Positions 1,409 through 17,949 of a stretch of 47,991 nt of DNA are shown piece by piece. Numbering within the stretch: position 1 is the first letter of the stretch; the number at the start of each line of letters is the position of its first letter. The notes below the pieces were generated by a model. The model searched no databases. It was not told the origin of the DNA and saw only the letters and a program-made list of their open reading frames with translations. Source of the DNA: an uncultured Halobacteriales archaeon (GTDB lineage Archaea > Halobacteriota > Halobacteria > Halobacteriales > Haloarculaceae); contig CAYWNQ010000001.1 of NCBI GenBank assembly GCA_964459695.1, forward strand, positions 1 to 47,991. The letters run 5' to 3'. Both the position numbers and the translations under genes were made by a program.

Positions 1409-1711
1409 GCTCGGTCGCTCGCGGTATCGTCGTTGTCCGCGGTCGCTGCCCTTGCTGGACCCCGCTCTGTCGTGGTGATGACGATACCGCCCGGTAACCC
1501 CGGCCGCCCGAGTCGAGCGTACGGGGGGCTTTCCGGCGGTGCTCCGCGGTTCAGGCACGAACAGCGGTCGGCGGAGGCGGTCAGCAGACGCGTAACGGGA
1601 GGCGCCATATCCGGTCGATGCAATCGCTCGTTCGAGCGCTTCATCCACGTCCACCACCAACGGTGCCCAGGGACCGACACGACCATATGCCGGCCCACGC
1701 CACGCCCCGCC

Positions 1712-2536
1712 ATGGTCACCAGCGACTGGGGCGACTGGCTGCCCCGGGCCGTCGCCGACGACGACCCGGAGGGCGTCGCGGTGTGGTACCTCGGCTGCAA
1801 CGGCTTCGTCCTGACGAGCGGCGACACCACCGTCTTCGTCGACCCGTACCTCGGGACCGGCGACCCGCCCCGGACCGTCCGGATGATCCCGGTGCCGTTC
1901 GACCCCACCGACGTCGAGGCGGCCGACGCGGTGCTGGCCACCCACGAGCACAGCGACCACGTCCACGGGCCCTCGCAGGCGCCGCTGCTGGAGGCGGGCG
2001 CCACCTTCGTCGGCCCGGACGACTCGCTGGCCGTCGCCCGCGAGGAGGGCTGGGCCGACGACTGGGACGTCGACCCGGAGGGGTTCCGCGAGGTGGCTGC
2101 CGGCGACCGGTTCGAGGTCGGCCCCTTCACCGTCCACGTCGAGGCGGCGAACGACCCGGACGCGACGCAGCCGGTGTCGTACGTCCTCGAGCACGACGCG
2201 GGGACGTTCTTCCACGGCGGCGACGCCCGGCCCGGCGAGCCGTTCGCCGACGTCGGCGCCCGCTACGACCTCGACCTGGGGGCGCTGGCGTTCGGCTCCG
2301 CCGGGACCATCCTCGACAAGGAGACGCGCGAGCCGACCTACACCGAGTGGTACGCCGACGAGAACCAGGTGGTCGAGGCGGCCCGCCAGCTGGAGCTCGA
2401 CCGGCTCGTGCCGACCCACTGGGACATGTGGAAGGGCCTGACGGCGGACCCGACGGCACTCCACGACCACGTCCAGTCGTTCGAGTACCCGCGGCGGCTG
2501 GAGCTGCTGGAGATCGGCGACCGCACGTCGGTCTGA
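1712..2536 (+). CDS. MBL-fold metallo-hydrolase (UlaG-like)
   Basis: The in-frame ATG at 1712 within ORF 1433-2536 starts the acidic part MVTSDWGDW..VWYLGCNGFVL..VFVDPYL..ATHEHSDHVHG (HxHxDH metallo-beta-lactamase motif). The upstream part of the ORF is Arg/Gly-rich and looks non-coding. Confidence 0.85.
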   Translation: MVTSDWGDWLPRAVADDDPEGVAVWYLGCNGFVLTSGDTTVFVDPYLGTGDPPRTVRMIPVPFDPTDVEAADAVLATHEHSDHVHGPSQAPLLEAGATFVGPDDSLAVAREEGWADDWDVDPEGFREVAAGDRFEVGPFTVHVEAANDPDATQPVSYVLEHDAGTFFHGGDARPGEPFADVGARYDLDLGALAFGSAGTILDKETREPTYTEWYADENQVVEAARQLELDRLVPTHWDMWKGLTADPTALHDHVQSFEYPRRLELLEIGDRTSV

Positions 2537-2598
2537 GACCGTCAGACGTTCCGACTCCGGGCGGTTCGACGCTCGATTCGCGGCGTGTCTTTATAGGC

Positions 2599-2618
2599 GA
2601 CGAACGAGCACGTTCGTC
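2599..2618. promoter_or_regulatory. perfect 8+8 palindrome (gacgaacg-agca-cgttcgtc) between the TATA box and the start codon of the coiled-coil gene
   Basis: gacgaacg (2599-2606) and cgttcgtc (2611-2618) are exact reverse complements. A TATA-like ctttatagg box lies at 2589-2597 and the ATG at 2622. Confidence 0.5.
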
Positions 2619-2621
2619 TCC

Positions 2622-3812
2622 ATGACCAACCTCGAGGAGGCCAGCATCGTCGTCGAGCACGACGGGGTGACCGTCCACAAGAGCTTCGAGGACGAGGACT
2701 TCCCGGTGCCGGCCATCGCGTTCGAGGTGCACGCCGACCGCCAGGAGGCCGTCGACGTGACCATCACCGACGTGGTGCCGCCGGAGGTACCCTCGGAGAA
2801 CATCGGGTTCCACCCCGAGTTCGGCGCCGAGTTCTGGTCCATCGAGGGCGACGACATCGTGTTCGAGCGGCGGTTCGACGCGGGCGAGGAGTACACCACC
2901 GTCTACGGCATCCGGCCCGAGCAGGTCGACGACGTCGAGAGCCACCTCGAGGAGCCCGACCTCGCGACGTCGCCCGCCGGGAGCCTGGCCGGCTCCGACG
3001 AGATCGGCGGCGTCGACGGCGACATCACCGTCGAGCCGCTGGACCTGGACGCCGACGTCGACGCCGACGAACCCGACCAGCACGAGGAGCCCGACCCCTC
3101 GCCCGGGGACGGCGTCGACGGGGAGGGACCGCCCCGGACCGACTCGCCCGAGGAGGGCGTCGTCGCCGCCCTGGCAGCGGAGATCCGGTCTGGCGAGGTC
3201 GACGACGCCGAGCTCCGGGCGCTCAGGGAGGCGCTGCTCGACGTCGACCCCGAGGGCGCCGGCGACAGCCAGGACGCCCGCGTCGCCCATCTCCAGGCCG
3301 CCGTCAGCGACCTCCGGGCCTACACCGACGCGATGGAGCGGTTCCTCGACGAGAACGGCGGGGGCCGGGCGGCGATCACGGACCTGCGCGAGCAGGTGAC
3401 TGCGGTTGAGTCCGAGGTCGAGGCCCTCGAGGACCGGACCGAGGACACCGCCGACCTCGCCCACAGACTCGGCTCCGACGTCGAGGAGCTGACCGGGGAT
3501 CTCGAGACGATCGACGACCGGCTCGCCGACCTCGAGGCCGGCATGGACGGAGCCCGCGACGAGGTGGCCGACGTCGAGGCGGAGGTCGAGACCGTCTACG
3601 AGGAGCTCGACGACCTCCACGTCGACGTCGAGGAGCTCACGGCTGACCTCGAGACGGTCCGCGAGGAGTCGGGCGGCGCGGACGACGTGGACGACCGGCT
3701 GACCGCGCTGGAGGACGACGTCGACGCCATCCGGCGCGACCTCGAGGACCTCGCGGAGATGCGCGACCGGATGGCGTCGGTGTTCGGGGCCCTCGACGCC
3801 GACGGCGAGTGA
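2622..3812 (+). CDS. acidic protein with an N-terminal globular domain and a long C-terminal coiled coil; function unknown
   Basis: 396-aa ORF with good GC3. The N-terminal ~110 aa read MTNLEEASIVVEHDGVTVHKSFEDEDFPVPAIAFEVH.. Next comes a D/E/P-rich linker, then heptad-like repeats (DLETIDDRLADLEAGMDGARDEVADVEAEVETVYEELDDLHVDVEELTADLETVREE). Confidence 0.75.
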   Translation: MTNLEEASIVVEHDGVTVHKSFEDEDFPVPAIAFEVHADRQEAVDVTITDVVPPEVPSENIGFHPEFGAEFWSIEGDDIVFERRFDAGEEYTTVYGIRPEQVDDVESHLEEPDLATSPAGSLAGSDEIGGVDGDITVEPLDLDADVDADEPDQHEEPDPSPGDGVDGEGPPRTDSPEEGVVAALAAEIRSGEVDDAELRALREALLDVDPEGAGDSQDARVAHLQAAVSDLRAYTDAMERFLDENGGGRAAITDLREQVTAVESEVEALEDRTEDTADLAHRLGSDVEELTGDLETIDDRLADLEAGMDGARDEVADVEAEVETVYEELDDLHVDVEELTADLETVREESGGADDVDDRLTALEDDVDAIRRDLEDLAEMRDRMASVFGALDADGE

Positions 3813-3831: not shown

Positions 3832-4968
3832 TCAGGACTCCCGCCGCCACTGGACGGCCATCACCGACGCGCTCGCGAGCAGGCAGCCGGCCAGTCCGGC
3901 GAACGCGGCGCCGTAGCCGGCGACCGTCGAGACGACCCCCATGTAGGTCGCCCCGAACGCGCCGACGCCGAGGAACAGTGCCCGGGCCGCTCCCAGGTCG
4001 CCGCCGGCGTTCTCCGCCGGGGCGACGTCGAGCAGGAGCGCGTCCACGAGGGGGAACTGGGCCTTGTAGCCGACCGCCATCACGCAGACCGCCGCGAAGA
4101 CCGCCAGCCGGCCGCCGGCCACCACGAGGCCGGCCATCGCGGCGACGGCCACCAGGAGGCCCCCGATGCCGATGGCGTGGCGGCTCATCCGGTCCGAGAG
4201 GCTGCCGGCCATCGGCTTCACGCCGGCGCCGACGACGAAGACGAGCGCGAACCCGAGGCTCGCCGTGGCCTCGGTGAACGTCTTGGCCTCCTGGAGGTAC
4301 GTCGGGAGGAAGTTGATGAACGCGCCGACGAAGAAGTAGAACAGCGCGTAGGCCACGAGCACCTCCCGCTGGCGGCGCGTCGTGGCCAGCCGCCGGACGG
4401 TGTCGCCGAGCTCGAGGTCGACGTGCTCGAGCGTGTAGTGCTCCCGGTTCCAGAGCGCGTAGAGACCTGCGAGCGCCACCAGCACCCCCGCGATCGGGAC
4501 GAACGGGCCGCGCCAGGTGGCGTAGGCGAGCGCCGCGACCGCGAGCCCCGAGGCGAGGATACCACCCACGTCGGTCCCGGCGGTGTAGATGCCCAGTGCC
4601 CGCCCGCGCCGGGAGACGAACAGCTCCGACACGAGCGCCCGGGTGGGGATGGCGAACAGGCCCTTCCCGACCCCGAGCAGCAGCGTTCCGGCGACGAAGA
4701 CCGCGTAGGTGCGGGCGTTCGCCACGGCCAGGAAGGCGGCGACGAGGACGAGCAGACCGGGCACGACCAGCGTCGCCCGGCCGAGCCGGTCCGACCACCG
4801 GCCTGCGGGATACTGGGTGACGGCGTAGGTGAGCTGGAACCCTGTGAGGGCGAACCCCGCGGTGGCCTTCGTGATCGAGAGGTCCTCGATGATCGCCGGT
4901 AGGAGCGGCGAGAGGAGGAACCGGCCGGTCTGGAGCGCCGCCCAGGCCAGCGACAGGGCGAGCAGCAT
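3832..4968 (-). CDS. MFS transporter
   Basis: A 12-TM-like hydrophobic ORF with the MFS loop motif (YPAGRWSDRLGR..). The start is taken at ATG comp. 4966-4968 (MLLALSLAWAALQ..). An alternative GTG start lies at 5007. The N-terminal extension of the longer ORF to 5103 is Pro/Arg-rich. Confidence 0.85.
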   Translation of the reverse strand: MLLALSLAWAALQTGRFLLSPLLPAIIEDLSITKATAGFALTGFQLTYAVTQYPAGRWSDRLGRATLVVPGLLVLVAAFLAVANARTYAVFVAGTLLLGVGKGLFAIPTRALVSELFVSRRGRALGIYTAGTDVGGILASGLAVAALAYATWRGPFVPIAGVLVALAGLYALWNREHYTLEHVDLELGDTVRRLATTRRQREVLVAYALFYFFVGAFINFLPTYLQEAKTFTEATASLGFALVFVVGAGVKPMAGSLSDRMSRHAIGIGGLLVAVAAMAGLVVAGGRLAVFAAVCVMAVGYKAQFPLVDALLLDVAPAENAGGDLGAARALFLGVGAFGATYMGVVSTVAGYGAAFAGLAGCLLASASVMAVQWRRES

Positions 4969-5213
4969 CCGTCCGCCGTACCCCCGGAAGTCGTCGGTGG
5001 CTGTCACTGGTCCGGCGTCGGGACGGCGGGGCCTTGAGTGGGGTGTTTGGGGCAGGCGGGACCCGCTTTCACGTGTCGGCCCTCCGGGTGGGTGGACCTG
5101 CAAGGGGGTGGGTCAGTCCCCCTCCACCGAGCAGTTCACGTTCTCGGCCGAGAACCACGGTGGGACGGCGGCCGTCTCGGGTGGAGTGAACGGGTATCGG
5201 GGAGCCCGCAGTT

Positions 5214-5237
5214 CTGTATAGCGACATAGAGTTTACA
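5214..5237. repeat. left terminal inverted repeat (ctgtatagcgacatagagtttaca)
   Basis: Its reverse complement tgtaaactctatgtcgctatacag matches 8025-8048 (tataaactgtatatcgctatatca) at 18 of the first 21 positions by hand alignment. It lies 61 nt beyond the integrase stop codon. Confidence 0.6.
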
Positions 5238-5298
5238 CGGGGCTGGCTGTTCCGAAATCCGCCCTCCAGAAAGCGACACAATTCTGCCGAAAACGCCC

Positions 5299-6345
5299 TC
5301 ACACCACCGAGTAGATGTTCGCCTCGTACACCTCCCGCACCCGGTCGCCCCAGTTGTGGGTGTAGGTGTCGATGACGTCCTGGGCGACGTCGCCGCGCAG
5401 GTACTTGACGACGCCGCGGTCGCCGGTCCGGTCCCGGAGGTGGGTCGTGAAGAAGTGCCGGAAGTAGTGGGGCGTGACGTTGTCCTCGGCGTTCCCGCCG
5501 GCACGGTACCACCCGACTGCGGACGCGTGGTCGGCCACGATCGACCGGACCATCGCGGGCGTGACCCGCCGCCCCCACTCCCGCGTCGAGCAAAACAGGG
5601 GCTCGGCGGGCGACCTGGCCGTCGGCCGGATTGCGAGATATCGCCGGAGGGTCCGCTTGAGCTCGGCGTCGACCGGTATCACGGTCGAGCGTTTGCGCTT
5701 GTTCGACGCCGTCCGCTCCTCGCCGCCGACCACGTCGCCCCGCGAGACGTCGCTGGCGACGAACAGCGAGCCCGGACGGCCGTCGAGCGTGCCGCGGTGG
5801 TCCACGTCGTAGGCCGCCTGCACGTCCGGATCCGCGAGGTGCAGGTCCCGGAGGTCGAGGTTGCACAACTCGCCCACCCGGACGCCGGTCTTGACCAGCG
5901 TCACCACCAGCGCACGGTCCAGCGGGTGGGTGATGTCGCGGACGAAGGCCCCCATCCCGGCAACAGAGACCTCCCGGCGCGCCGGGTCGGTGTCGACGGA
6001 CTCGTCCATCTCCTCCATCACGAGGGTCATGGGGTTCGCGTCGAACTCGCCCACCTGGGTCATGTAGGCGTAGAACCGGTGGACGTAGGAGGCGTACGTC
6101 GCGACGGTCGACGACGCGAGGTCCCCGCGGATGCGGTGGACCCACGCCATGCACTCGTGGCGCGTCGCCTCCGGCAGGGAGGTGTTCCTGTCGGCCACGT
6201 AGGCCTCGAACCGCCGCAGGACGCGCTCGTATGCGTCTCGCGTCCGCCGGGTCTTGCCGTGGTACTCCAGGTCCTCGAGGAAGTAGCCGACGGGGTCGTC
6301 GCTCGCGTCGACCGACGGCCCCTCGCGCTCGCCGGCCTCACTCAT
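5299..6345 (-). CDS. tyrosine recombinase / phage-type integrase (XerC/D-like)
   Basis: 348 aa. The N-terminal SAM-like core-binding region reads RTRDAYERVLRRFEAYV. The catalytic blocks are VKTGVRVGELCNLDLRDL (Arg), TPHYFRHFFTTHL (H-x-x-R) and VIDTYTHNW (Tyr). Confidence 0.92.
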   Translation of the reverse strand: MSEAGEREGPSVDASDDPVGYFLEDLEYHGKTRRTRDAYERVLRRFEAYVADRNTSLPEATRHECMAWVHRIRGDLASSTVATYASYVHRFYAYMTQVGEFDANPMTLVMEEMDESVDTDPARREVSVAGMGAFVRDITHPLDRALVVTLVKTGVRVGELCNLDLRDLHLADPDVQAAYDVDHRGTLDGRPGSLFVASDVSRGDVVGGEERTASNKRKRSTVIPVDAELKRTLRRYLAIRPTARSPAEPLFCSTREWGRRVTPAMVRSIVADHASAVGWYRAGGNAEDNVTPHYFRHFFTTHLRDRTGDRGVVKYLRGDVAQDVIDTYTHNWGDRVREVYEANIYSVV

Positions 6346-6760
6346 CCTCCACCACCCGGTAGCCGCCCTCCCGGGGACTGTGAACGACGGCGTTCTCGCT
6401 CTGGAGCTCGGCGATGGTCTCCTCCAGGCGGTCCTCGATGTCGTCGGTCAGCGCGGCAAGGAGCTCGTCCCACGAGCAGACCCCCTCCTCGGCGAGGACG
6501 TCGAGCACCCGGTCATCCAGGTCGTTACCCCCGGGGTCGGTGGGCGGAGCATCCGGCTCGACGGTGTTCCCGCCGTCGGCGTCGAAGTCGAAGTCCCGGA
6601 CGCCGGCCTGGACCATCGTGCGGACGAACTCGCTGGCGCTCATGTCCATCGACTCCGCGCGCTCGCGCCACTCCTCGCGCTGGTAGGCCGGGACGTAGGT
6701 CCGGACCGCGACCCGCTCGGTCTCCTCCTCGGCTGACATGTCCCCCGGTTCAGCGTCCAT
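6338..6760 (-). CDS. ribbon-helix-helix (CopG-like) DNA-binding protein coupled to the integrase
   Basis: RVAVRTYVPAYQREEWRERAESMDMSASEFVRTMVQAGV has a strand-helix-helix pattern, followed by an acidic C-terminal domain. It overlaps the integrase start by 8 nt. From memory it resembles the family often found upstream of haloarchaeal integrases (possibly DUF5805). An alternative start lies at 6739. Confidence 0.8.
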   Translation of the reverse strand: MDAEPGDMSAEEETERVAVRTYVPAYQREEWRERAESMDMSASEFVRTMVQAGVRDFDFDADGGNTVEPDAPPTDPGGNDLDDRVLDVLAEEGVCSWDELLAALTDDIEDRLEETIAELQSENAVVHSPREGGYRVVEDE

Positions 6761-7296
6761 CTACTTCAATCTGTGTCAGACATCTAGATAAAAGCCCTTA
6801 TCGTTCAATCTAATGCGTTCAGATCACCGATAGAGTCAGATATCGTGAATTCTGACACACTATTTTCAGTTGGCATTGTCAGAATAGGCGATAAGAGAAT
6901 ATGTCGAGAATTGTGGCTCCAGCGGGGAGCGGGACCGTTGCATCAACATGAACGTTTATTACAAACCACCTCCTGCGATCGGTACAGACAGATGCTCGGG
7001 ATCGTACGCGCGAACTGATTCTCCCCCGCCCGAGTACCGTCTCCGACCGCCACCGCCGTTCAACCGATGACAGCCACACGCCACACCGACGACATTGAAC
7101 CGCTCGTTCCCGAACTGCCGCCGGAGCCACGCACCGACGGTGGCCGGCCAGCTCCCCCCGAGCCGACGTCCGGCACACCGACCCGGGAACCCGGCCAACC
7201 CCAGAAGGGAATCAACCCGCTCGTCCCGGACCTCAGGTGAGGCCGTAGCGAGACTTTTTGGCAAGCCTAAAATACTCGCGCCGGATAGCGCCGGTG
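6761..7296. promoter_or_regulatory. AT-rich divergent control region with GTCAGA/TCTGAC repeats
   Basis: By hand count, 46 of 120 nt are G/C in 6781-6900. GTCAGA occurs at 6775, 6835 and 6878, and TCTGAC at 6851. tgtgtcaga (6772-6780) and tctgacaca (6851-6859) form a perfect 9-bp inverted repeat. GTCAGAYATC occurs twice (6775, 6835). A TATA-like cctaaaatac lies at 7266-7275, before the GT2 ATG. Confidence 0.55.
7067..7240 (+). CDS. possible 57-aa Pro-rich micro-ORF with an internal PLVP[ED]L repeat
   Basis: MTATRHTDDIEPLVPELPPEPRTDGGRPAPPEPTSGTPTREPGQPQKGINPLVPDLR. It is below the ORF-track length cut-off. Codon bias is mixed and I recognise no homology. Confidence 0.2.
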   Translation: MTATRHTDDIEPLVPELPPEPRTDGGRPAPPEPTSGTPTREPGQPQKGINPLVPDLR

Positions 7297-7998
7297 ATGA
7301 CAGCGGACTCGGAGGAGCCGTACACGTTCGACGACGTGAGCGTCGTCATGGGGACGTACGACGAGGAGGCGGCCGTCGGCTCTGTGCTGGCCGACGTCGA
7401 CCACGTCACCGACGGCCGCGCGGAGGTGGTCTGCGTCGACGGGTCCTCGGACAGGACCCCCGAGATCGCCCGCGAGCACGGCGCACGCGTCGTCGAGCAG
7501 GAGCCCCGGGGGTACGGGGTCGCCGTGAGCCGGGCGCTGCACGAGGCGTCGCGTCCCGTGGTCGTCACCACCGACTGCGACGACACCTATCCGATGGAGG
7601 CGCTGCCGCGGTTCCTCGAACGGATCAACGAGGGGTACGACGTCGTCAGCGGCGACCGGCTCTACCACGGTGCCGACGCAATGCCGTCGGCCAACCGCGT
7701 CGGCAACGCCGCGTTCGCTCTCCTGGCCTCGGTGCTGCTGGGCGAACGGGTCCACGACACCACGACCGGCATGCGTGCCTACCGGCGCGAGGTCGTCGAG
7801 TCCATCGAGTGGACCGAGAACACCGGGCTCTCCGCCGAGTTGCTCATCAGGCCACTGGCCCGGGGGTTCGACGTCGTCGAGGAGCCCATCGACTACCGCG
7901 AGCGGGCCGGGGAGACCACCCTGGATCCGCTGGCGGGCGGCGCTGCAATCGCCACCTCCATCGTCCGGGTGTGCGTCGAGGAACAGTTGGGTTCATGA
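7297..7998 (+). CDS. GT2 glycosyltransferase (Dpm1 / polyprenyl-phosphate-sugar synthase-like)
   Basis: VSVVMGTYDEEAAVGSVL..VVCVDGSSDRTPEIA..VVTTDCDDTYP..VVSGDR..TTGMRAYRR are GT-A/GT2 signatures with a DxD-type motif. The start is taken at ATG 7297 inside ORF 7258-7998. Confidence 0.85.
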   Translation: MTADSEEPYTFDDVSVVMGTYDEEAAVGSVLADVDHVTDGRAEVVCVDGSSDRTPEIAREHGARVVEQEPRGYGVAVSRALHEASRPVVVTTDCDDTYPMEALPRFLERINEGYDVVSGDRLYHGADAMPSANRVGNAAFALLASVLLGERVHDTTTGMRAYRREVVESIEWTENTGLSAELLIRPLARGFDVVEEPIDYRERAGETTLDPLAGGAAIATSIVRVCVEEQLGS

Positions 7999-8024
7999 CA
8001 GGAATCCTCTGGAGAGAAGCTAGC

Positions 8025-8048
8025 TATAAACTGTATATCGCTATATCA
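8025..8048. repeat. right terminal inverted repeat (tataaactgtatatcgctatatca)
   Basis: Partner of 5214-5237. It begins 26 nt after the GT2 stop codon and contains the near-palindrome tatatcgctata. Confidence 0.6.
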
Positions 8049-8207
8049 AATCGGTTCCCGTGCGGGACCAGAGAATCGCAGTATGGAATGCTACAAATCA
8101 GACGCTGACTGACAGGTCTCTGGACGCCCTGTCACGACGGCCCCAAGCCAGTTTGTCTGAGGTCGTCCGTGCTAACATATTTCCTCGATGCCGGGGTCAA
8201 GGAAGGT

Positions 8208-8789
8208 ATGGCAGACGTGGAAGACCTGCGGAAACGGCTCCTCGGACAGCGGTTCTACGACAAGCAGGAGGACGAGGCCTTCACCGTGGTCGGCGTCACC
8301 AGCCAGCCGCCGCTCGCCCTCCTCCAGTACGACGACGGCGTCGGGTGGGACGAGGCGGCGTCGAACTTCACTGTCGATGAGGACACCGCCCGGAAGGCGG
8401 GACTCGACGAGCACGGACTGGACTCCGAGCGGTACCACCAGCTTGGGCCGGGGCCGCGCATCGACCATACCTGCGACCTCGATGAACACAACTGGTTCCC
8501 GCGGCCGGACGACCTCTGGCAGGACGTCCCTTCGGGCGACCAGCGCAAACAAACCCCCGGCCATCCCCGGGACTTCTACAACCGGATTGCGCGGTGCAAG
8601 CGGTGCGGGCTCTCCGGGAGCGTCGCCGGCCAATTCGGAAACTACGGGGCAAAGGGTCACCATCAGACGCCGTGGTTCTGCCACGAGTGCAGCGACGTCC
8701 TCCCCGGGCACGAACTCCGCTACGTCGGTGACGTGGCTCACTGTCCCGAGTGCGCCGCCGCAAAAGAGGAGGGACGGGACGGCGAGTGA
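8208..8789 (+). CDS. hypothetical protein with C-terminal Cys-pair (zinc-ribbon-like) motifs
   Basis: MADVEDLRKRLLGQRFYDKQEDEAF.. is acidic with good GC3. The Cys pairs are CKRCG..CHEC..CPEC. A TATA-like gctaacatatttcc lies ~28 nt upstream. I recognise no family. Confidence 0.6.
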   Translation: MADVEDLRKRLLGQRFYDKQEDEAFTVVGVTSQPPLALLQYDDGVGWDEAASNFTVDEDTARKAGLDEHGLDSERYHQLGPGPRIDHTCDLDEHNWFPRPDDLWQDVPSGDQRKQTPGHPRDFYNRIARCKRCGLSGSVAGQFGNYGAKGHHQTPWFCHECSDVLPGHELRYVGDVAHCPECAAAKEEGRDGE

Positions 8790-8887
8790 GACGCAGGACG
8801 GGGGCACGGCCGCCCGCCACGCGCCCGAAGCTACTTCAGGGACGACTGCAACAGGACGCGTCGATTTCCGACACGTTCGAACCGTGG

Positions 8888-9400
8888 GTGACCGACCGGG
8901 GCGAGATCGCCCACCGGAACGAGACCGGCGAGTGCGTGTGCGGCGGCGACGACCTCGGCCTGCTCGGCCGGTTCCACGATTACGACTGGTGCGGGGAGTG
9001 CGACCGTGAGTACGTCTGGCAAGATGGGGAGGCCGTCCATCCCGAGGAGATCCTTGCTACCGACCGCGAGAGACTCGTCCACGCCAGCGAGGAGTGGGAG
9101 GCGTTCAAACCTCCTATGCGAGTACGACAAAACGTTCCGCGACCACATCAAGTTCGGCGCGACGGCCGACGACGAGGCTGGCTGTGAGCGCACGACAGTC
9201 TCTACATCGGCTACCTGCTGTACAAGTGGGACACGCTCCCACAACTCCTCGTCGTTCACGGCTACCGCGAGCAGGGCCACGGCACTCGGTTCGTTGAGAA
9301 GCGGTTCGACCGCCTCGGCGAGGAGGAGATTGAGGTGATGAGTTTTGATGAACGGGAGTCGTTCTACCGCGAGCCGGACGTCCCGTTCGCGAACGTCTAA
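8888..9400 (+). pseudogene. disrupted CDS of unknown function (two compensating frameshifts plus an in-frame TGA)
   Basis: The coding-like frame (GC3, acidic) runs in frame 2 from ~8888 (..TDRGEIAHRNETGECVCGGDDLGLLGRFHDYDWCGECDREYVWQDGEAVHPEEILATDRERLVHASEEWEAF). It switches to frame 0 over ~9108-9195 (CEYDKTFRDHIKFGATADDEAGCERTT). It then returns to frame 2 (HDSLYIGYLLYKWDTLPQLLVVHGYREQGHGTRFVEKRFDRLGEEEIEVMSFDERESFYREPDVPFANV*, stop 9398-9400). In frame 2 a TGA lies at 9185-9187. Confidence 0.4.
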
Positions 9401-9656
9401 CTGCGTAGCACTGAATGCTCTCGCGGTTCGTGAACCGTGTCGGCGTTCGGTGGTCACCGCCCCGACGTTCGAGCCGCGGGAACCCGCCGGAGTTGCCCGG
9501 TATGCACACTATCTCCGTCAGAATCCCCACAGACGTCCACAACGGTGTTAAACGGGGACGACTTGCCGTCCACAGCCTTCGAGTTCGGTTGACACGGGAA
9601 GGGCGCGACCCGCCATCTGGGGCGCTCTTTTCACCGCCGGGGAGATATGGTAGACT

Positions 9657-9890
9657 GTGGATAGAAGATCATTTCTGAGGAACACCACCGCCGTCGCGGC
9701 TTTCGGTGTCGGAATGAGCGGCTATCTCGACACCGGCGGCGAGAAGGAGAACCCAACTCCGAACGGAGGTGGCACCAACCGTGCGGACGTACCGACCGGT
9801 CGACACGAAGCGGGTGCCTCTGACCCGACAGGTGGCCCGTACCCCACGCAAGGTCGAGTTATCCCGTACCGGCGGGCGCGAAACGGGTGA
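9657..9890 (+). CDS. orphan 77-aa ORF starting with a twin-arginine (Tat) signal; possibly a gene remnant
   Basis: (GTG)MDRRSFLRNTTAVAAFGVGMSGYLDTGG.. is a canonical haloarchaeal Tat leader. A Gly/Pro-rich low-complexity tail follows. Low-GC codons (aga aga tca ttt) are atypical for this window. Confidence 0.35.
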   Translation: MDRRSFLRNTTAVAAFGVGMSGYLDTGGEKENPTPNGGGTNRADVPTGRHEAGASDPTGGPYPTQGRVIPYRRARNG

Positions 9891-9953
9891 AACGGACGGA
9901 ACTGTCGGTGCTCGTTATTACCCCTCCACCGCAACCGACGGTACTTCGATTCC

Positions 9954-11015
9954 ATGCCATCGGGATTGCCGGATTCCACCCGAACGCTACTGGTCGTCGT
10001 GACGGTCGCGGTCGTGGTCTCGATGGTCGCTGGCGTGGCCAGCGCGGCCCCGGACGAGACGGGTGCAGTCGCCTCCCCCGACGGGACGCTCCCCGACGAG
10101 GGGGCTCTCCCGCCCATGGACGTCCCGTTCGGACCCGTCGCCGGCGCCGGAACCGGATCGGAGGCCGGCGACGCGGGGCCAGGGTCACCCGTCGAGGCCG
10201 GCCAGACGGGGTGGGCACCACCGGTCGGGCCGGATCGGACGACGGCGGCGTCACCCGAACCGCAGCCACCGGTCCAGCAGCTACCGACCGGCCGAGTGAC
10301 CCTCGACGTTCCCCGGACGGAGGCCGTCGACCACGGGACCCCGTGGCTCTCCGGGACGAACGACGGGGGTCGGCTGGCCGGCCACGCAGGCGACGGCCGG
10401 CCGGGACCGCGCGCGCTGGCGTGGTTCCTCACCGGTCTCACCGCGCTGCTCGCGGACGCCGCGGGCGTCATCGGCACTGTCGCGGCGGTCGCGGAGGCGG
10501 CCGTGACGACGGTTCCGGTCGTCGCCGGGCTCCTGGATGCGGCCATCGGAGTCGCCGGCATCCTGTCGGGACTGCTCGTGCACGCGCTGTATCGCGACCT
10601 CGCGGCGAGTCCGAGTGGACTGACCGCGGCCGTCCGACAGCTCCCGTTCGCGGACCTGGACGCCGGTCGCCGACTGGGAGCGTGGGCCTGGTGGCTGCCC
10701 GGCGGTGCCAGGGCCGCGGCATCTCGCGGGGAGGACGAGCCGGGGGCAACGAACGGGCCCGACGTCGACAAGGGGAGCGACGAACTCGTGCCCGACAGCC
10801 TCGTCGTTCAGCGGATACTGGAGTCGAACGAGGGCCGCCTGAAGCAGGGCGCCATCGTCGAAGCGACGGGGTGGTCCAAGTCGAAGGTCAGCCGGCGCCT
10901 GTCCCGGATGGCAGACGACGGCCGTATCGTGAAGGTCAGACTCGGGCGCGAGAACCTCATCTGTCTGGACGGGGCCGAGCCGGACGTCGTCTCGGGAGGA
11001 CCGACACCGGCGTGA
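9954..11015 (+). CDS. membrane-tethered winged-helix (MarR/ArsR-like) transcriptional regulator
   Basis: The N-terminal TM/signal anchor is TLLVVVTVAVVVSMVAGVASA. A ~130-aa Pro/Gly-rich segment and two further hydrophobic helices follow. The C-terminal wHTH reads VVQRILESNEGRLKQGAIVEATGWSKSKVSRRLSRMADDGRIVKVRLGRENLICL. Confidence 0.75.
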   Translation: MPSGLPDSTRTLLVVVTVAVVVSMVAGVASAAPDETGAVASPDGTLPDEGALPPMDVPFGPVAGAGTGSEAGDAGPGSPVEAGQTGWAPPVGPDRTTAASPEPQPPVQQLPTGRVTLDVPRTEAVDHGTPWLSGTNDGGRLAGHAGDGRPGPRALAWFLTGLTALLADAAGVIGTVAAVAEAAVTTVPVVAGLLDAAIGVAGILSGLLVHALYRDLAASPSGLTAAVRQLPFADLDAGRRLGAWAWWLPGGARAAASRGEDEPGATNGPDVDKGSDELVPDSLVVQRILESNEGRLKQGAIVEATGWSKSKVSRRLSRMADDGRIVKVRLGRENLICLDGAEPDVVSGGPTPA

Positions 11016-11248
11016 CCACGGCTTCGGTGTCCGGGGGTCGGATCCGTCACGGTGGCGGCGGTCTCGCGTCCTCGAACTGGGCGTCCGGGTGCAGTCGCGG
11101 CGTGGTCGTAGAACCTCCCGGCCGGTGCGGTGGTCAGATCCCGGACCGCCCCTGTCCCCGCGGGTGTACTCCGGCCGAAATCGACCGCCGACGGAGTGTC
11201 GTTCGTCGGAGGTGGGGCGGGCGTCCCGGCCGCGGAACGGCCACGCGA

Positions 11249-11307
11249 GAAACGGTTTCGTCGACCGTTTCACCCCGAAACGTCCCCCAACGGTGCGCAA
11301 CGGTTTC
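11249..11307. promoter_or_regulatory. cluster of GAAAC/GTTTC pentamers (operator-like) upstream of the glycosylation operon
   Basis: gaaac at 11249-53, gtttc at 11255-59, gtttc at 11267-71, gaaac at 11277-81 and gtttc at 11303-07. aacggt recurs at 11251, 11289 and 11299. All lie 55-115 nt upstream of the ATG at 11363. Confidence 0.4.
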
Positions 11308-11362
11308 GCCGATTGATGGACTGGTCCGGTCAACGGGCGGGTGCCTCGATCGGGCACGAACC

Positions 11363-12157
11363 ATGACAGCACAACGGACACACGCGGACGAACGCACCGA
11401 TGCTACCGGGGTCTCCGTCGTGATCCCCACGTACAACGAGCGGGAGAACGTCGCGCCGATGGTGCGGTCGTGTCGTCGCGCACTCGCGGAGTACGACGCG
11501 GAGGTCATCGTGGTCGACGACGACAGCCCCGACGGGACGTGGCGGCGCGTCGACCGGGAGTTCGGCGACGCGGACGACGTGCGACTCGTACGCCGGGTCG
11601 ACGACCAGGGACTCGCGACCGCGGTCGTCGAGGGGTTCGACGCGTCGCGCAACGAGCACCTCGGCGTCATCGACGGCGACTTCCAGCACCCGCCGGACCG
11701 GCTCCCGGACCTCGTCGACGCCCTGCAGACGTTCCGGGCCGACGTCGCCGTGGGCAGTCGCTACCTGGCTCACGGCGGGATCGAGGAGTGGTCCTCCGGG
11801 CGCAAGGCCCTGAGTTACGGCGCGACGCTGATGACCCGAACGCTCGTCCCCGACGCGAGACGCCTGTCGGACCCGCTGAGCGGGTTCTTCGCCGTTCGGC
11901 GGGACCTCGTCGACGACGTCTCGCTGTCGCCGACCGGGTACAAGATCCTGCTCGAGATCCTCACGGAGTGCTCCGTCGACCGGATCGCCGAGGTCCCGTT
12001 CACGTTCTCGGACCGGGACAGCGGGGAGTCCAAGGCGACCGTCGACGAGTACGCCAAGTTCCTCAACCACCTCGTCTCGTGTTCGTACCGCACCCGTATC
12101 CACGACGACGGCCGCCCCGCCGACCCCGTGGCGCTGACCCCCGAGTTCGAACGATGA
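11363..12157 (+). CDS. GT2 polyprenyl/dolichyl-phosphate hexose synthase (GtrB/Dpm1/AglD-like)
   Basis: VSVVIPTYNERENV..VIVVDDDSPDGT..VIDGDFQHPP..AVGSRY..LSDPLSGFFAVRR..GYKILLE is the classical Dpm1/GtrB block order. The start is ATG 11363, in frame within the artefactual 756-aa ORF 9887-12157. Confidence 0.9.
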   Translation: MTAQRTHADERTDATGVSVVIPTYNERENVAPMVRSCRRALAEYDAEVIVVDDDSPDGTWRRVDREFGDADDVRLVRRVDDQGLATAVVEGFDASRNEHLGVIDGDFQHPPDRLPDLVDALQTFRADVAVGSRYLAHGGIEEWSSGRKALSYGATLMTRTLVPDARRLSDPLSGFFAVRRDLVDDVSLSPTGYKILLEILTECSVDRIAEVPFTFSDRDSGESKATVDEYAKFLNHLVSCSYRTRIHDDGRPADPVALTPEFER

Positions 12158-12293
12158 GCCGGGGAACGCGGGCCGCCGACGGGTTCGACGCACGCCCGAT
12201 CCGGTGCCCGTTGCGTTGCCGGTCCCGCGCGCGCTCTCGCCGGGGCCGAACCGATGTCGCCGGTCGGCGGTCGGTCGAGGGGTGTCGACGTCG

Positions 12294-13316
12294 ATGAGCG
12301 TCGCGATGTGCCCGCACCTCTCGGTCGAGCACTACCGGGGCGGCGAGAAGTGGACCGTCATGGTGGCGAACAGGCTGGCCGCCGACGGCGTCGACGTCGA
12401 CGTCCGGGCGCTCCCCTACGCGCCCGGGGGGACGCGCCGCGTCTCGGCTACGGACGTGCTCCACGACGCCGTCAGCTACCGTGAGGCGTGGCGCCACGAC
12501 CTCTCCGGGTACGACGTCTCCTACGTGTTCTACAACCCCCTCTCGGAGGCGTTCTTCGGCGGCGACACCTACCGGATCGCGGGGATCCACTCGTGGGCGT
12601 ACGTGACGGACCGGCTCTTCGAGTCCCACTACGGCGCCGTCCCCACCCTGGTCAAGGCCCTCTACTGGACGTTCGGCGACCGCGAACTCGGCCGGTTCGA
12701 CGCCGTCCACACCTGCACCGGGGCGTTCGACTCCCCGAACGAGAACACCGTCCACATCCCCAACTACGTCGACGCCGACCGCTACCACCCCGACGCCGCC
12801 GAGACCGGAGACGAGTTCACCGTCCTGGTCACGGCGGCCCGCATCAGGGAGAAGGGCTGGGACCGCGTCCGGGCGACGGCGGCCGAGCTCGGCGAGGAGG
12901 ACGTCCGGGTGGTCGCCACCGGCAGCGCGGACGACGGAGCGACCGGCTCCCGTCCCGTCGAGGACCTCGGGTTCCTCGAGGAGGCGGAGCTCGCGGCGTG
13001 GTACGCCCGCGCCCACGCCGTGTTGCATCCGACGCGGGTCGACGCCGACAGCATCGTGATGAAGGAATCGCTGGCCGCCGGGACGCCGGTGGTCACCACG
13101 TCGCTTCCCACCCACCGGGCCCACGCCGACCGGCCCGCGATCCTGTTCGGCGACTCGGTGGACGAACTCGCCGACGGGATACGCCGACTCCGTCGCGAGT
13201 GGGGCCGCTCGACCCGGTACGCCGACAGGGCCCGGTCGGCTCGCGACCTCGGCGAGCGATACGACGAGTCGGTCGTGTTTCCCCGGCTCAAGGCACTCCT
13301 GACCCGCGATACATGA
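12294..13316 (+). CDS. GT-B fold glycosyltransferase (GT4-like)
   Basis: MSVAMCPHLSVEHYRGGEKWTVMVANRL.. The C-terminal part has the GT4 pattern (FLEEAELAAWYARAHAVLHPTRVDADSIVMKESLAAGTPVV). The stop overlaps the next start (ATGA at 13313-13316). Confidence 0.8.
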   Translation: MSVAMCPHLSVEHYRGGEKWTVMVANRLAADGVDVDVRALPYAPGGTRRVSATDVLHDAVSYREAWRHDLSGYDVSYVFYNPLSEAFFGGDTYRIAGIHSWAYVTDRLFESHYGAVPTLVKALYWTFGDRELGRFDAVHTCTGAFDSPNENTVHIPNYVDADRYHPDAAETGDEFTVLVTAARIREKGWDRVRATAAELGEEDVRVVATGSADDGATGSRPVEDLGFLEEAELAAWYARAHAVLHPTRVDADSIVMKESLAAGTPVVTTSLPTHRAHADRPAILFGDSVDELADGIRRLRREWGRSTRYADRARSARDLGERYDESVVFPRLKALLTRDT

Positions 13317-15778
13317 GTACGCTCGCGCCGAACCGGCACGACGCTCGCGTCAGGCGCTTCGCCCAGTACGTGGTGGTTGGCGCGGTCGGAATTGCCATCA
13401 ACGAGGGGACGCTGTTCCTCTCGACGGCGTACCTCGGCGTCTCCTACGTCGGCGGTGGCGCCCTGGGTCGCGTCCTGAGCGTCCTGTTCAACTACGTCGT
13501 CAACGACCAGTGGACGTGGGGGAGTCACGGGGACGGCGGGGCGGGCCGGTGGGTACTCCGCGGCGGGAAGTACGTCGCGACCCGGCTGGTCGGGATGGCC
13601 ATCGGGCTGACGACGCTCGTGGTACTCGTCGAGTTCGGGGGCGTCCACTACCTCCTCGCGAACCTCGTCGCCATCGGGGCCGGCGTCGCCTGGGGGTTCC
13701 TCGCGAGCGAGCTCTGGGTCTGGGGTGCCCACGAGTCGAGCGACCTCGACGTCGCGGCGGTCCGGCGCCGCGCGGCCTCGGTCCTGTCGCGGGTCGACAC
13801 CAACACCTGGATCGTCCTCCTGGTCTCGCTCGCGCTCTTCGTCGTCCTCTCGGCGTACACCGTCTCCCTGTTCCGGAGTTTCTGGTCGACCGGGGCCGAC
13901 CTGGGTGCGTACGTGCACGCGTTCGCGACGACGCTCGACGGGTCGGGGTTCCTCCAGCAGGGCAAGTACCGGGTCAACCACCCGGGCGGCTCCTACTGGG
14001 GCGCTCACTTCTCGCTGACCGTCCTCGGATTCCTGGTCCCCTTCGCCGTCCACCAGTCGCCGGTGACGCTGCTCGTCGTGAAGTCGTTCGTCATCGCGGC
14101 GGGCGTGCCGGTGTTCTGGCTGGTCGCCCGCGACCACGTCGAGAGCGACAACGTCGCGGTCCTGCTGACCGTGTCCTACGCGCTCAACCCGTTCCTGTGG
14201 ACGGCCGCCATCTACGACTTCCAGGAGCAGATCCTCCTGCCGGTCCTCGTCATCGGCGCCTACTACGCCTACCGGAAGGAACGATACCTCCCCTTCCTGG
14301 GGCTGTTCGCGCTCGCGCTGCTGACGAACGAGTTCGTAATCTACGTCGCGGCGGGCTTCCTCGGCGGCCTCGCCGTCGCCGGCCTCCGGACGGGGCGCCT
14401 GCGGGAGGAGGCGACGGTCTTCGCCGCCGCGGGCGGGCTCCTGGTGGCCACGAAGGCGCTGGCGACCTACGTGATCGGACGGTACAGCCGGTTCTCGGGG
14501 ATCCCGACCGACCGCCTGGCCGACCCGATCGTCGCTGCCGTCGCGGGCGACGGGGCGACCCCGGTCCGCATCCCCCTGACCGACGTCCTCGCCACGCTGC
14601 TCGGCGAACCCCTGCTGGCGGTGGACTCGTTGCTGATCAACTGGGAGCTCAAGCTCCTGTTCTTCGGCCTGCTCGGGCTCCCGGTGATGTACCTGCCGCT
14701 CGCCGACGAACCGGCGGTGGGTGCGCTCGTTCCGTACCTCGGGCTCGCCTGGATACTGGCGGACAACCCGGCGTACTACCACTTCGGCGCCCACTACTCG
14801 CTGTACGTCCTCCCGTTCCTCTACGTCGGCGCCGCACGGAGCTTCGGATGGGTGAGCAGCCGGATCTCCCGGCAGCGGATGGCGAGTCTCACCACCGGCG
14901 CCGTCGGCGTCTGCATCGTGGCGACGCTGGTCGGCGGCGTGCTCGTGACCGGCCTGGGATACCAGATGGTCCCGGCCAACGACGACCACACGGAGACGCT
15001 CGAGGAGGCGATCGACGCCGTCCCGGAAAACGCCTCGCTGGTGACCCAGAACACGGTCTACCCCCACGTCGCGACCCGGCCGAACGCGACGTTCGTCATG
15101 GACGACGAGTACTTCGAGCGGTACCAGCGACGGTACGGGGAGGTGCAGCCCCGGTACATCCTGATCGACACGAGACTGGACACCCGCCCGAAGGACTGGG
15201 CCCTGCCGGTCCACCAGGCCTACAGCGACGAGTTCGGCGACGAGTACGGCCTGTACCGGTACCAGGACGGGATCTTCGTCTTCAAGCGCGGCTACGACGG
15301 GCCCACGACGGGGATCACGAGAGCGGAGTACACCGTCGACACGCGCCGATACCGCCCCTCCCGGTCGGTGATCGCGGGCATCGACTTCGACGACGTCGCG
15401 GCCGACGAGCCGCGGAACGCCGAGAACGTCACCTGGAAGGGGCCGTGGACGATCGACCACGCGACGCTCCCGCCCGGGACGTACACCGCGACCTTCAGGG
15501 TGAACGCGACCGCCCCGGACGGGACCGGGACGACCGACCGCCGACCGCCAGGGTCGACGCCGACCCGGCAGTCGGCCGGGTCGCAGTACGTCGGCGTCTC
15601 CAGCGCCGACGAGGGGTTGGTCGCGACGCGGGCGGTCAACCGGACCGGGACCTGGACGAACGTCACGGTCGCGTTCACGCTGGACCGGAGCGGCGTCGTC
15701 GACTTCCACGGCTTCGAGGCCGGGGACCGGTCGATCCGGGTCGAGTGGATCGAGGTCCGGGAGGTGCGCGTGTCGTGA
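13313..15778 (+). CDS. fusion protein: GtrA-like domain + DUF2079-type polytopic membrane domain (putative GT-C-like transferase) + C-terminal soluble domain
   Basis: Residues ~10-135 are GtrA-like (RFAQYVVVGAVGIAINEGTLFL..NYVVNDQWTWG..VHYLLANLVAIGAGVAWGFLASELWVWG). Residues ~150-600 show the DUF2079 pattern (GADLGAYVHAF..GAHFSLTVL..YDFQEQILLPVLV..LLTNEF). The C-terminal ~220 aa are hydrophilic with six N-x-S/T sequons. The start is ATG 13313, in frame in ORF 12488-15778. Confidence 0.85.
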   Translation: MSTLAPNRHDARVRRFAQYVVVGAVGIAINEGTLFLSTAYLGVSYVGGGALGRVLSVLFNYVVNDQWTWGSHGDGGAGRWVLRGGKYVATRLVGMAIGLTTLVVLVEFGGVHYLLANLVAIGAGVAWGFLASELWVWGAHESSDLDVAAVRRRAASVLSRVDTNTWIVLLVSLALFVVLSAYTVSLFRSFWSTGADLGAYVHAFATTLDGSGFLQQGKYRVNHPGGSYWGAHFSLTVLGFLVPFAVHQSPVTLLVVKSFVIAAGVPVFWLVARDHVESDNVAVLLTVSYALNPFLWTAAIYDFQEQILLPVLVIGAYYAYRKERYLPFLGLFALALLTNEFVIYVAAGFLGGLAVAGLRTGRLREEATVFAAAGGLLVATKALATYVIGRYSRFSGIPTDRLADPIVAAVAGDGATPVRIPLTDVLATLLGEPLLAVDSLLINWELKLLFFGLLGLPVMYLPLADEPAVGALVPYLGLAWILADNPAYYHFGAHYSLYVLPFLYVGAARSFGWVSSRISRQRMASLTTGAVGVCIVATLVGGVLVTGLGYQMVPANDDHTETLEEAIDAVPENASLVTQNTVYPHVATRPNATFVMDDEYFERYQRRYGEVQPRYILIDTRLDTRPKDWALPVHQAYSDEFGDEYGLYRYQDGIFVFKRGYDGPTTGITRAEYTVDTRRYRPSRSVIAGIDFDDVAADEPRNAENVTWKGPWTIDHATLPPGTYTATFRVNATAPDGTGTTDRRPPGSTPTRQSAGSQYVGVSSADEGLVATRAVNRTGTWTNVTVAFTLDRSGVVDFHGFEAGDRSIRVEWIEVREVRVS

Positions 15779-17151: not shown

Positions 17152-17652
17152 GTGGACCGCATCGAGCCCCGGGAAGGGCCGCCGTCCCGGACCTCGACCG
17201 CGGTCGGGGCGGCGCCGCCGCCAGGCCGGACCTGGTCGTCGGTCAGCAGCTCCTCGACGGTCATGTAGACGACCTCCTCGTCGGCCCCGGCGAGGAAGTC
17301 CAGGACGCGGTCGGTGACGGCCGACTGCTCGGTGACGGTCCAGACGCCGCGCTGCTCGGTCCGGCGGGTCCCGGTCTCCGGCTCCTCCAGAGCGCGGCGC
17401 AACTGCGTCGCCCGGTGGGTGAACTCCCGGGGGGCGACTGGCGGACGTCGACCAGCCCTTGCTCGCGGAGCTCGTCGACGGCGTCGTACACCCGGGTCCG
17501 GGGGACCTCGGACACGCGCGCCACGTCGCGTGCCGTACCGGTGTCGAGCCCGACGAGCGTCACGAACGTGCCTGCGGCGTAGCTGCTCGGGCCGAACTCC
17601 TCGAGCTGGGTCACGGCCTCGTCGCCGGGGTCTCCGGGGCTTCGTCCGTCAT
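17139..17652 (-). pseudogene. TrmB-family regulator paralog, twice frameshifted and C-terminally truncated
   Basis: Three successive reverse frames carry the homology. The first is MTDEAPE.. (ATG comp. 17650-17652). The second is DEAVTQLEEFGPSSYAAGTFVTLVGLDTGTARDVARVSEVPRTRVYDAVDELREQGLVDVRQSPP. The third is REFTHRATQLRRALEEPETG..VWTVTEQSAVTDRVLDFLAGADEEVVYMTVEELLTDDQV. This is collinear with the intact TrmB at 17950-18750. The shifts fall in the C/G runs 17625-17630 and 17426-17434. The sugar-binding C-terminal half is absent, and the 3' end overlaps the sulfatase-like gene by 13 nt. Confidence 0.7.
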
Positions 17653-17949
17653 CTGGCTCCCTCGAACCCGGCCACGCGGGGTGACCGGACCGGGCGCGCA
17701 GCGATTGTGGTTGGGACACAAAGGTGACTGCGCGCCGGAAACCGGTAGGAGGCGGGCTGATATAACATTTTTGTGATGAACCGAGTTACAGCCGTGCCGG
17801 CGGCTGACAGCGCCGGCACCCGTGCGGTGGCGAGGACGGCGACGGTGTTATCGGTTTCGTGACGACCCTGGTGCGGTGACAACGCCTATGAGTTCCGGGA
17901 CCGTCTGTGGTCGCAGCTCCGGACCCGTTCCGGACGCAGGTTGGGACAC

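Follow-up and report, generated by a model that had tools for sequence, protein, structure and literature searches.

Why is a tyrosine recombinase gene of a haloarchaeon enclosed, with its neighbours, between two oppositely oriented copies of one short sequence? The locus that raises this question lies at positions 5214-8048 of a 47,991-nucleotide stretch from an uncultured Halobacteriales archaeon (contig CAYWNQ010000001.1, positions 1 to 47,991; hereafter the window), where a first-pass annotation had described a recombinase, a ribbon-helix-helix (RHH) protein and a family 2 glycosyltransferase (GT2) bounded by 24-nt imperfect inverted repeats, and had taken the segment for an invertible or mobile cassette with the glycosyltransferase as its cargo. 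The present analysis points to a different answer: with a probability of about 0.5, the two repeats would be dif-like target sites of an Xer-type recombinase that occurs throughout the class, and the system would be the haloarchaeal counterpart of Xer/dif.

The repeats themselves are real. The reverse complement of positions 5214-5237 is TGTAAACTCTATGTCGCTATACAG and positions 8025-8048 read TATAAACTGTATATCGCTATATCA, which on direct reading agree at 18 of the first 21 positions, and an inverted-repeat search recovers the same pair as 19-nt arms (5217-5235 and 8027-8045) with 89% complementarity. A degenerate 21-mer with up to three mismatches allowed matches these two places only in the 47,991 bases, and nowhere in 100 dinucleotide shuffles. 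The spacings originally reported (61 nt past the recombinase stop codon, 26 nt past that of GT2, and an 8-nt overlap between the recombinase and RHH genes) are likewise correct. The conserved element, of about 35 bp, is longer than the 24-mers. Its two copies around the recombinase operon, each of which reads outward and includes one of the 24-mers, are termed here the R-site (GCCCCGTGTAAACTCTATGTCGCTATACAGAACTG; 5209-5243, minus strand; 55 nt past the recombinase stop; left 24-mer) and the L-site (GCTAGCTATAAACTGTATATCGCTATATCAAATCG; 8019-8053, plus strand; 20 nt past the GT2 stop; right 24-mer). With a 35-column weight matrix built from other genomes, for which the 99.99th percentile of the background is 15 bits and true sites score 25-58 bits, the R-site reaches 35.3 bits and the L-site 44.5 bits, and no other position in the window scores above -3.6.

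The recombinase (348 aa; 5299-6345, minus strand; Pfam Phage_integrase and Phage_int_SAM_1) is Xer-like, and both this assignment and that of GT2 are borne out by Pfam and NCBIfam. Its matches in the PDB are XerD and XerA, yet it scores below every NCBIfam cut-off for the Xer families (110.2 versus 220 bits for recomb_XerA_Arch, 89 versus 335 for XerC and 87 versus 330 for XerD), and its catalytic domain carries about 41 extra residues between the blocks that align with XerD. Across 24 aligned recombinase sequences R156, H293, R296 and Y328 are invariant; the insertion prevents placement of the catalytic lysine. About 1,600 close relatives share 65-75% identity, and those with a source-given name, among the matches listed, are all haloarchaeal. 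Relatives are present in 516 species genomes (one genome per species scanned) and the recombinase tree is in line with taxonomy. Two copies occur, among the genomes listed, only in Halomarina halobia, where one is chromosomal and the other lies on a 1.16-Mb plasmid. The recombinase is thus a single-copy, vertically inherited, class-wide chromosomal gene. Halobacteria are reported to lack canonical Xer and to possess Xer-like 'Arch1' recombinases with an insertion, which 'may compensate for Xer function' (PMC8138268); the window recombinase fits this description (Halobacteria-specific, Xer-like, with an insertion) and is a candidate member of that group.

The proposal of a mobile cassette bounded by the repeats is therefore not sustained. 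The variable locations, patchy distribution and plasmid or virus presence of a mobile element were not found; the recombinase and its partner gene form a single-copy pair that is inherited vertically throughout the class, within a semi-conserved neighbourhood, with no orthologue in the viral contigs of IMG/VR and orthologues in only two records of the plasmid collection, both of about 1 Mb. The locus is also not a classical attL/attR prophage, as the first-pass annotation had already concluded. Sites linked to tRNA genes were considered and rejected, the real tRNAs (37349-37422 and 40782-40960) being about 30 kb distant and the ARAGORN tRNA-Ala at 10443 being without Rfam support, and a search for direct repeats bounding a larger island in the window found none. 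An 'integrase' label at this locus should accordingly not be taken to mark a genomic island or a mobile element.

Flanking DNA was compared among the best 80 of the 516 relatives, from Natronomonas, Halorarius, Haloglomus, Halomarina, Halobacterium, Haladaptatus, Haloarcula, Halorubrum, Halohasta and other genera; L followed by a number (L001, L004, L048 and so on) labels a compared locus or contig. A motif block with the consensus CGAACTCRTAAAYYRTATRTYGCTATAYCRAAT is conserved 3' of the recombinase stop codon across genera, in most loci, and generally lies within about 130 nt of that codon (up to about 590 nt in a few). Both sites, inverted around the operon formed by the recombinase and the DUF5805 gene that encodes the RHH protein, are found in 62 of 81 haloarchaeal loci covering all major genera. 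The repeats are thus kept together with the genes and are tied to the recombinase, as originally suspected; the loci without both sites are mostly contigs that end too early or carry a weaker copy. Sites upstream of the operon lie on the minus strand and those downstream on the plus strand, the exceptions being two weak matches (16 bits or less) that overlap a strong site. The DUF5805 gene directly precedes the recombinase gene in all 80 loci, and its start is 355 nt to about 4.6 kb away from the upstream site. Where this gap is smallest (L079, L058, L026, L009, L002, L003, L054 and L056), it consists of 355-570 nt of AT-rich non-coding DNA; the minimal unit therefore contains no cargo gene.

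The anatomy of the motif is that of a tyrosine-recombinase core site. It contains a dyad, TAT-N6-ATA, which the pairs R15/Y28 and Y13/R30 extend and whose 6-bp centre, RTYGCT, is asymmetric, giving an arrangement that resembles the 11-6-11 layout of dif; one arm, CTATAYCRAAT, matches 9 of 11 positions of an arm of the Pyrococcus abyssi dif site (TTATATCCAAT; dif sequence from PMC2958812). Furthermore, the L- and R-sites of one genome resemble each other more than sites of different genomes do (22.95 versus 21.94 ± 0.27 matches, a value reached in none of 2000 permutations), the excess being concentrated at the central positions 19-21. The sites are taken as targets of the recombinase because the motif is the only conserved non-coding DNA attached to that gene, because of this core-site architecture, because the segment that the sites bound has flipped repeatedly, and because the motif adjoins plasmid integrases in a position classical for resolution or attP sites. 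That the recombinase binds and cuts the sites, and the purpose of the reaction, we infer from sequence. Each site would consist of a dif-like core, with half-sites YnRTAT and ATAYnR about the asymmetric 6-bp RTYGCT, within the block of about 35 bp, and the recombinase would be expressed together with its RHH and winged-helix partner from an autoregulated promoter, such that site, control region, DUF5805, recombinase and site make up a fixed chromosomal module. The normal task of the enzyme may be recombination between the identical sister copies of one site, for the resolution of replicon multimers, and/or recombination with the single site copies found on plasmids and viruses; a reaction between the two inverted sites of the module would flip the module as a rare, occasional by-product. 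In the lineage of the window the left-hand site lies beyond the gene for a dolichyl-phosphate hexose transferase (GT2), which is hence enclosed as a passenger.

Much of this is familiar from Xer/dif systems such as the archaeal XerA/dif and the streptococcal XerS/difSL. These share with the haloarchaeal system a single chromosomal, vertically inherited and simple tyrosine recombinase with a SAM-like N-terminal and a catalytic domain, as well as an AT-rich site of two half-sites around a 6-bp centre; in XerS/difSL the site also adjoins the recombinase gene. In contrast with the one 28-bp dif (11-6-11) per replicon of those systems, two inverted sites bracket the gene here, with further pairs at rio2 and NifU-like modules, an RHH and winged-helix partner gene is obligatory, and the enzyme is set apart by its insertion of about 40 residues, by an Asp at the position of XerD His270 and by its scores below the XerA, XerC and XerD cut-offs.

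The module has been inverted relative to its surroundings in the course of evolution, and to this extent the idea of an invertible segment holds. A conserved flanking block, comprising an HTH_10 regulator (E245), coiled-coil proteins (B396/F505) and G312/A335, is found in one relation to the module in Natronomonas, Halorarius, Haloglomus, Halosegnis and the window, and in the opposite relation in Haloarchaeobius, Halorubrum, Halorussus, Halegenticoccus and Haloarcula. The block (E245/B396/F505/G312) begins about 380 nt past the R-site in L004 and comes within 100 nt of the L-site in L069, while in L048 true orthologues of the GT2, PMT_2 and ATP-binding cassette (ABC) genes (C395-D726-GT2) lie on the opposite side. 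Both orientations turn up at scattered places in the recombinase tree, so several independent flips occurred. A claim that both flanks were swapped, based on the ABC ATPase C395, was discarded, most of its matches in the second configuration being only 30-38% identical and probably to a paralogue; the case for inversion therefore relies on the E245/B396/F505/G312 block and on L048. Population-level inversion in Halohasta was also considered and rejected, as the isolate and the metagenome contigs differ to the left of the operon as a mosaic without a clean breakpoint at the site. In that comparison, between a Halohasta litchfieldiae isolate (L135) and an Antarctic metagenome (L139), the sequences share 99.6% identity to the right of a point some 160 nt upstream of DUF5805, share only 78% in the control region and are unrelated beyond the L-site, which places a mosaic junction inside the module.

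Beyond the recombinase locus the motif is rare. A metagenome scan with a strict pattern returned at least 154 strong sites, and in the subset with fair ascertainment, on which the statement of rarity is based (sites with at least 3 kb of DNA on either side; n = 16), eight adjoin the recombinase, three adjoin rio2 and five have other, mostly plasmid- or virus-like, neighbours. On plasmid-like contigs (54-59% GC) one motif lies 150-210 nt upstream of integrases of 411-422 aa that are remotely related to the window recombinase, in the order parA, acidic protein, site, some 200 nt, integrase, the motif pointing antisense into the par operon; in some of these contigs it is instead followed at about 300 nt by a DUF7342 winged-helix gene, next to an insertion sequence (IS) transposase (plasmid-like sites: L163, 2944-2978; L164, 2456-2490; L250, 5993-6027; L151, 885-919; L226, 4704-4738; L264, 5103-5137). 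Tailed-virus contigs related to HSTV-1, BJ1 and Humcor1 carry the motif with no integrase or DUF5805 gene nearby (L091, 10408-10442, minus strand; L113, 7093-7127, minus strand; L119, 205-239, plus strand; also L098, L178, L203 and L270).

Several observations weigh against the sites being crossover points of this recombinase. The gene of the RIO2 kinase, rio2, is bracketed by an outward-reading inverted pair of motifs in at least nine contigs and in the Haloarcula marismortui chromosome, with no recombinase near (L265, 4890-5972; L272, H. marismortui AY596297.1, 3916-5010; also L246, L197, L212, L238, L154, L196, L231 and L254). About 50 nt separate its 5' site from the ATG (43-53 nt in eight contigs; about 168 nt in L238), a spacing that looks regulatory, its 3' site lies 54-222 nt past the stop codon, and a search for inversion of the rio2 module found collinear flanks wherever genomes could be compared. 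Likewise, a pair of genes for a 109-aa protein (MADEFDPEKFEDKY...) and a 125-aa NifU-like protein is enclosed by inverted motifs about 1.07 kb apart, again with no recombinase near (L207, 3145-4257; L230, 3012-4114; L263, 1747-2849). In three tailed-virus contexts the motif, lying along the direction of transcription, exactly fills the gap between a stop codon and the ATG of the terminase or MuF gene; it runs from the TAA that closes a zinc-ribbon gene and ends 5-6 nt short of the ATG for the large terminase subunit, or it abuts a MuF-like ATG. There it presents CGAAC, TAAA and TA elements at the distances of a B recognition element (BRE), a -27 and a -10 element (TAAA at about -26 to -32; the invariant TA at about -10). 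Three unrelated recombinase families adjoin this one motif, which is surprising if it is a specific target, unless a dif-like core is recognised by all three. In the enzyme itself, the position of the catalytic His270 of XerD is occupied by an invariant Asp, D319, in all 24 orthologues (motif YLRGD; codon at 5389-5391 of the window); an Asp at this position is unusual in an active tyrosine recombinase. In addition, the central 6-mers of the L- and R-sites are identical in only 16% of genomes (8% expected) and differ in 84%, the window being among the latter (GTCGCT versus ATCGCT). Finally, among 102 pairs of loci with at least 85% nucleotide identity in the recombinase gene, none has swapped flanks and 80 are collinear, and 24 contigs of a Halobacterium DL1-like population, from many samples, all show a single orientation. 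Orientation thus varies across genera and families but not among close relatives: flips are rare, on the time scale of genera and families, and the module is no phase-variation switch.

The chief alternative takes the motif for a protein-bound transcriptional element, either a polar boundary or roadblock or a specialised outward promoter, that marks the ends of a few modules (the recombinase operon, rio2 and the NifU-like pair), is reused by viruses and plasmids, and is no crossover site at all, the inversions being rare accidents between short inverted repeats. The fixed rio2 spacing in at least eight contigs and H. marismortui, the position of sites 20-130 nt past stop codons, the viral copies that span a TAA stop to 0-6 nt before an ATG with promoter-like spacing, the outward reading of the motif in every enclosed module (recombinase, rio2 and NifU-like alike), the lack of recent inversions and the mostly different L and R centres all speak for it. 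We nevertheless regard this explanation as rather unlikely, if far from negligible. An open reading frame (ORF) starts within 40 nt downstream of only 11 of 142 host sites, compared with 25% of random positions; nothing is conserved downstream of the motif; the dyad is built around an asymmetric centre of 6 bp, and the oligo-T that typifies archaeal terminators is missing; the plasmid copies face the par operon in antisense; and copies are rare, about half of those fairly ascertained flanking the recombinase, a tight and class-wide linkage that a boundary or promoter role would leave without explanation. Less probable still is that the chromosomal sites are attachment sites of mobile elements (attB, or attL/attR scars) and the host module a domesticated remnant, a role that may coexist with either of the preceding ones. 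Single motif copies beside plasmid integrases and on tailed-virus contigs are in keeping with it, as are the single genes between direct site repeats next to the R-site (L013, 7035-8191, and L019, 7081-7969, in each of which the second site is strong) and the roughly 10.6 kb that lie in the window between the L-site and the C395/D726 homologues, the first 2 kb or so being of lower GC. However, no integrated provirus or plasmid was seen at the L- or R-site in any of about 130 loci, the 10.6-kb stretch has no second bounding site in the window by weight matrix, and the conservation of both sites throughout the class argues for a host function; moreover, the related temperate viruses Humcor1 and BJ1, which have integrases and tRNA attP sites of their own, were searched for the motif and lack it.

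The glycan hypothesis, in which an actively invertible or transferable cassette switches or moves a glycosyltransferase and thereby makes glycan modification phase-variable or mobile, appears to us very improbable, despite the joint presence in the window of inverted sites, an internal recombinase and GT2, and despite the inversions of the module during evolution. GT2 (7297-7998, plus strand) is a housekeeping enzyme, a dolichyl-phosphate hexose transferase by the NCBIfam equivalog NF041391 (401.9 bits against a cut-off of 375), whose orthologues, 71-80% identical, occur in 22 of the 80 loci on either side of the sites and which stays beside its PMT_2-type partner whether it is within or beyond the repeats (in L004-, L064- and L048-type loci its neighbours are an ABC ATPase and a PMT_2/DUF7846 glycosyltransferase). 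It is therefore a core host neighbour that lies within the sites only in some lineages, rather than cargo, and weak remnant sites (19-20 bits), which in L001 and L004 separate GT2 from the control region, indicate that it was enclosed secondarily. A TATA-like element of its own, CCTAAAATA, lies at 7266 inside the segment, so that a flip would not switch GT2. The minimal module without cargo, the uniform orientation in the close pairs and in the DL1-like population, and the confinement of the recombinase in the plasmid and viral collections to two large plasmid records complete the case against a switchable or transferable glycan-modification unit. We therefore return to target sites of an Xer-type recombinase as the preferred reading. 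An extended form of it, which we put forward tentatively and at less than even odds, is an undescribed class-wide system in which a recombinase that replaces Xer acts with its RHH and winged-helix partner on a 'haloarchaeal dif', the motif of about 35 bp being kept as outward-reading inverted pairs around the system's own operon, rio2 and the NifU-like genes, and copied by plasmids and tailed viruses in order to borrow the enzyme for integration or the resolution of multimers.

Compared with other systems of inverted or dif-like sites, the module shows partial likenesses. The pdif modules of Acinetobacter plasmids, bounded by inverted XerC/D sites, are also small modules of one or two genes with inverted dif-like sites in varied contexts, and there too the recombinase can act in trans; in contrast, the haloarchaeal modules are chromosomal and class-wide, contain housekeeping genes, in one case encode the recombinase, and have extra sites that are direct rather than alternating. 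As in Salmonella Hin/hix and the Int1 segment of the halovirus phiCh1, the gene of the recombinase is enclosed in a segment bounded by inverted sites that are its own, as predicted here, and this much is shared with invertons in general; phiCh1 also demonstrates that inversion by a tyrosine recombinase does take place in haloarchaeal systems. Both orientations within a population or among close relatives were not seen in the 24 contigs or the 102 pairs, however, and in place of a conserved outward promoter/target pair the promoter-like elements of GT2 and of the operon lie inside the segment, with flanking genes that vary by genome and site centres that mostly differ; in addition, Hin is a serine recombinase, and in phiCh1 the repeats form clusters within tail-fibre genes. 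Integrons (intI, attI, attC) likewise combine a tyrosine recombinase with a divergent control region, and in L001 and L004 a gene that reads outward has a site behind it and a weak one towards the control region, but cassette arrays (there is at most one extra site) and folded sites of the attC type are absent, the sites are of one motif type, and the enclosed genes are conserved host neighbours. The genes between the R-site and the direct second site in L013 and L019, for a DUF5789 protein and a GNAT acetyltransferase, look like inserted one-gene cassettes. Finally, single host-type sites on plasmids and viruses that lack the recombinase recall the ColE1 cer site and the integrative mobile elements exploiting Xer (IMEX) such as CTX-phi, from which the present cases differ in that some of the plasmids have unrelated integrases beside the site and that the viral site lies between structural genes.

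The constant partner of the recombinase (140 aa; 6338-6760, minus strand; Pfam DUF5805, 7.9e-28; 8-nt overlap with the recombinase start) had been described as an RHH protein, which is reasonable for the N-terminus but incomplete, the C-terminal winged helix being the DUF5805 domain. The AlphaFold model consists of an RHH-like N-terminus, a disordered linker and the winged helix (predicted local distance difference test, pLDDT, above 90 for the C-terminal domain). A Foldseek search of the PDB with this model returned no significant neighbour (best E-value 0.7, a VapB antitoxin), every homologue that bears a source-given name is haloarchaeal, and a literature search found no published description of DUF5805. 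The AT-rich control region upstream of the gene (6761-7066) has 50% GC, and 43% in 6771-6930, rather than the 38% first estimated. On its plus strand a palindrome, GATAAAAGCCCTTATC (6787-6802; similar to GATAAG-N4-CTTATC), overlaps a TTTTATC TATA box about 30 nt before the ATG at 6760, four copies of GTCAGA/TCTGAC lie within 6775-6895, and the GATAAG..CTTATC palindrome and a GTCTGAC..ATTGA block are retained in front of DUF5805 in other genera. Palindrome and block are likely the operator and promoter of the DUF5805-recombinase operon, as predicted from their position, and because the conserved palindrome covers the TTTTATC box near the start, it suggests that the operon is autoregulated.

Between the control region and GT2 of the window there is a small conserved ORF (57 aa; 7067-7240, plus strand) without a Pfam family, with PLVPxL motifs at both ends (DIEPLVPELP ... 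INPLVPDLR), which has tblastn homologues at the same position in L001, L004, L019 and L008; L002/L003 have small ORFs that resemble it. The PMT_2 and ABC homologues, which adjoin the cassette in L004-type loci, are displaced in the window to 18.7-22.7 kb. Almost none of the intervening 10.6 kb (8054-18700) is matched in other loci by tblastx, and the GC content of its first 2 kb or so is 60-67%; it encodes a 193-aa CxxC zinc-ribbon protein (8208-8789), a membrane protein with a DUF7343 winged helix, a second GT2, which carries a GtrA domain, and a DUF2079 protein. The L-site was also considered as a promoter of the adjacent outer gene and rejected, as the ORF at 8060, 6 nt past the motif, has no coding signal and the real gene starts at 8208. 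On the other side, a major facilitator superfamily (MFS) transporter gene (3832-5103, minus strand) between the R-site and the conserved flank genes (1618-3812) has a counterpart in none of the 80 other loci and is probably a lineage-specific insertion. The 91-nt tRNA-Ala that ARAGORN placed at 10443-10533 is inside high-GC ORFs and probably false, and the intron-containing tRNA at 40782-40960 was found by Rfam and missed by ARAGORN.

Haloarchaea are highly polyploid model archaea without an identified dif site or a dedicated Xer recombinase. No haloarchaeal dif site is known (PMC7776575, PMC13532300), and our literature search found no published haloarchaeal dif site, inversion system or architecture of this kind. 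Reviews list 12 XerC/D-like genes in Haloferax volcanii, none with an assigned site. Taken singly, the parts of the system are of known kinds: inverted-site modules, dif-like sites and Xer-like recombinases all have precedents. What appears to be new is that the arrangement brackets itself and is class-wide, and that it extends to rio2 and NifU-like modules, plasmids and viruses. A recombinase with relatives in 516 species genomes, with a constant partner and the same inverted motif, is a concrete candidate for the missing system and, if the extended interpretation is true, would provide both the long-missing dif/Xer equivalent of haloarchaea and a new, self-bracketed module architecture. The reuse of the motif at rio2, at the NifU-like genes, on plasmids and before the viral terminase suggests either that hosts and mobile elements share a recombination currency or that the motif represents boundary elements of a new class, and either would be new.

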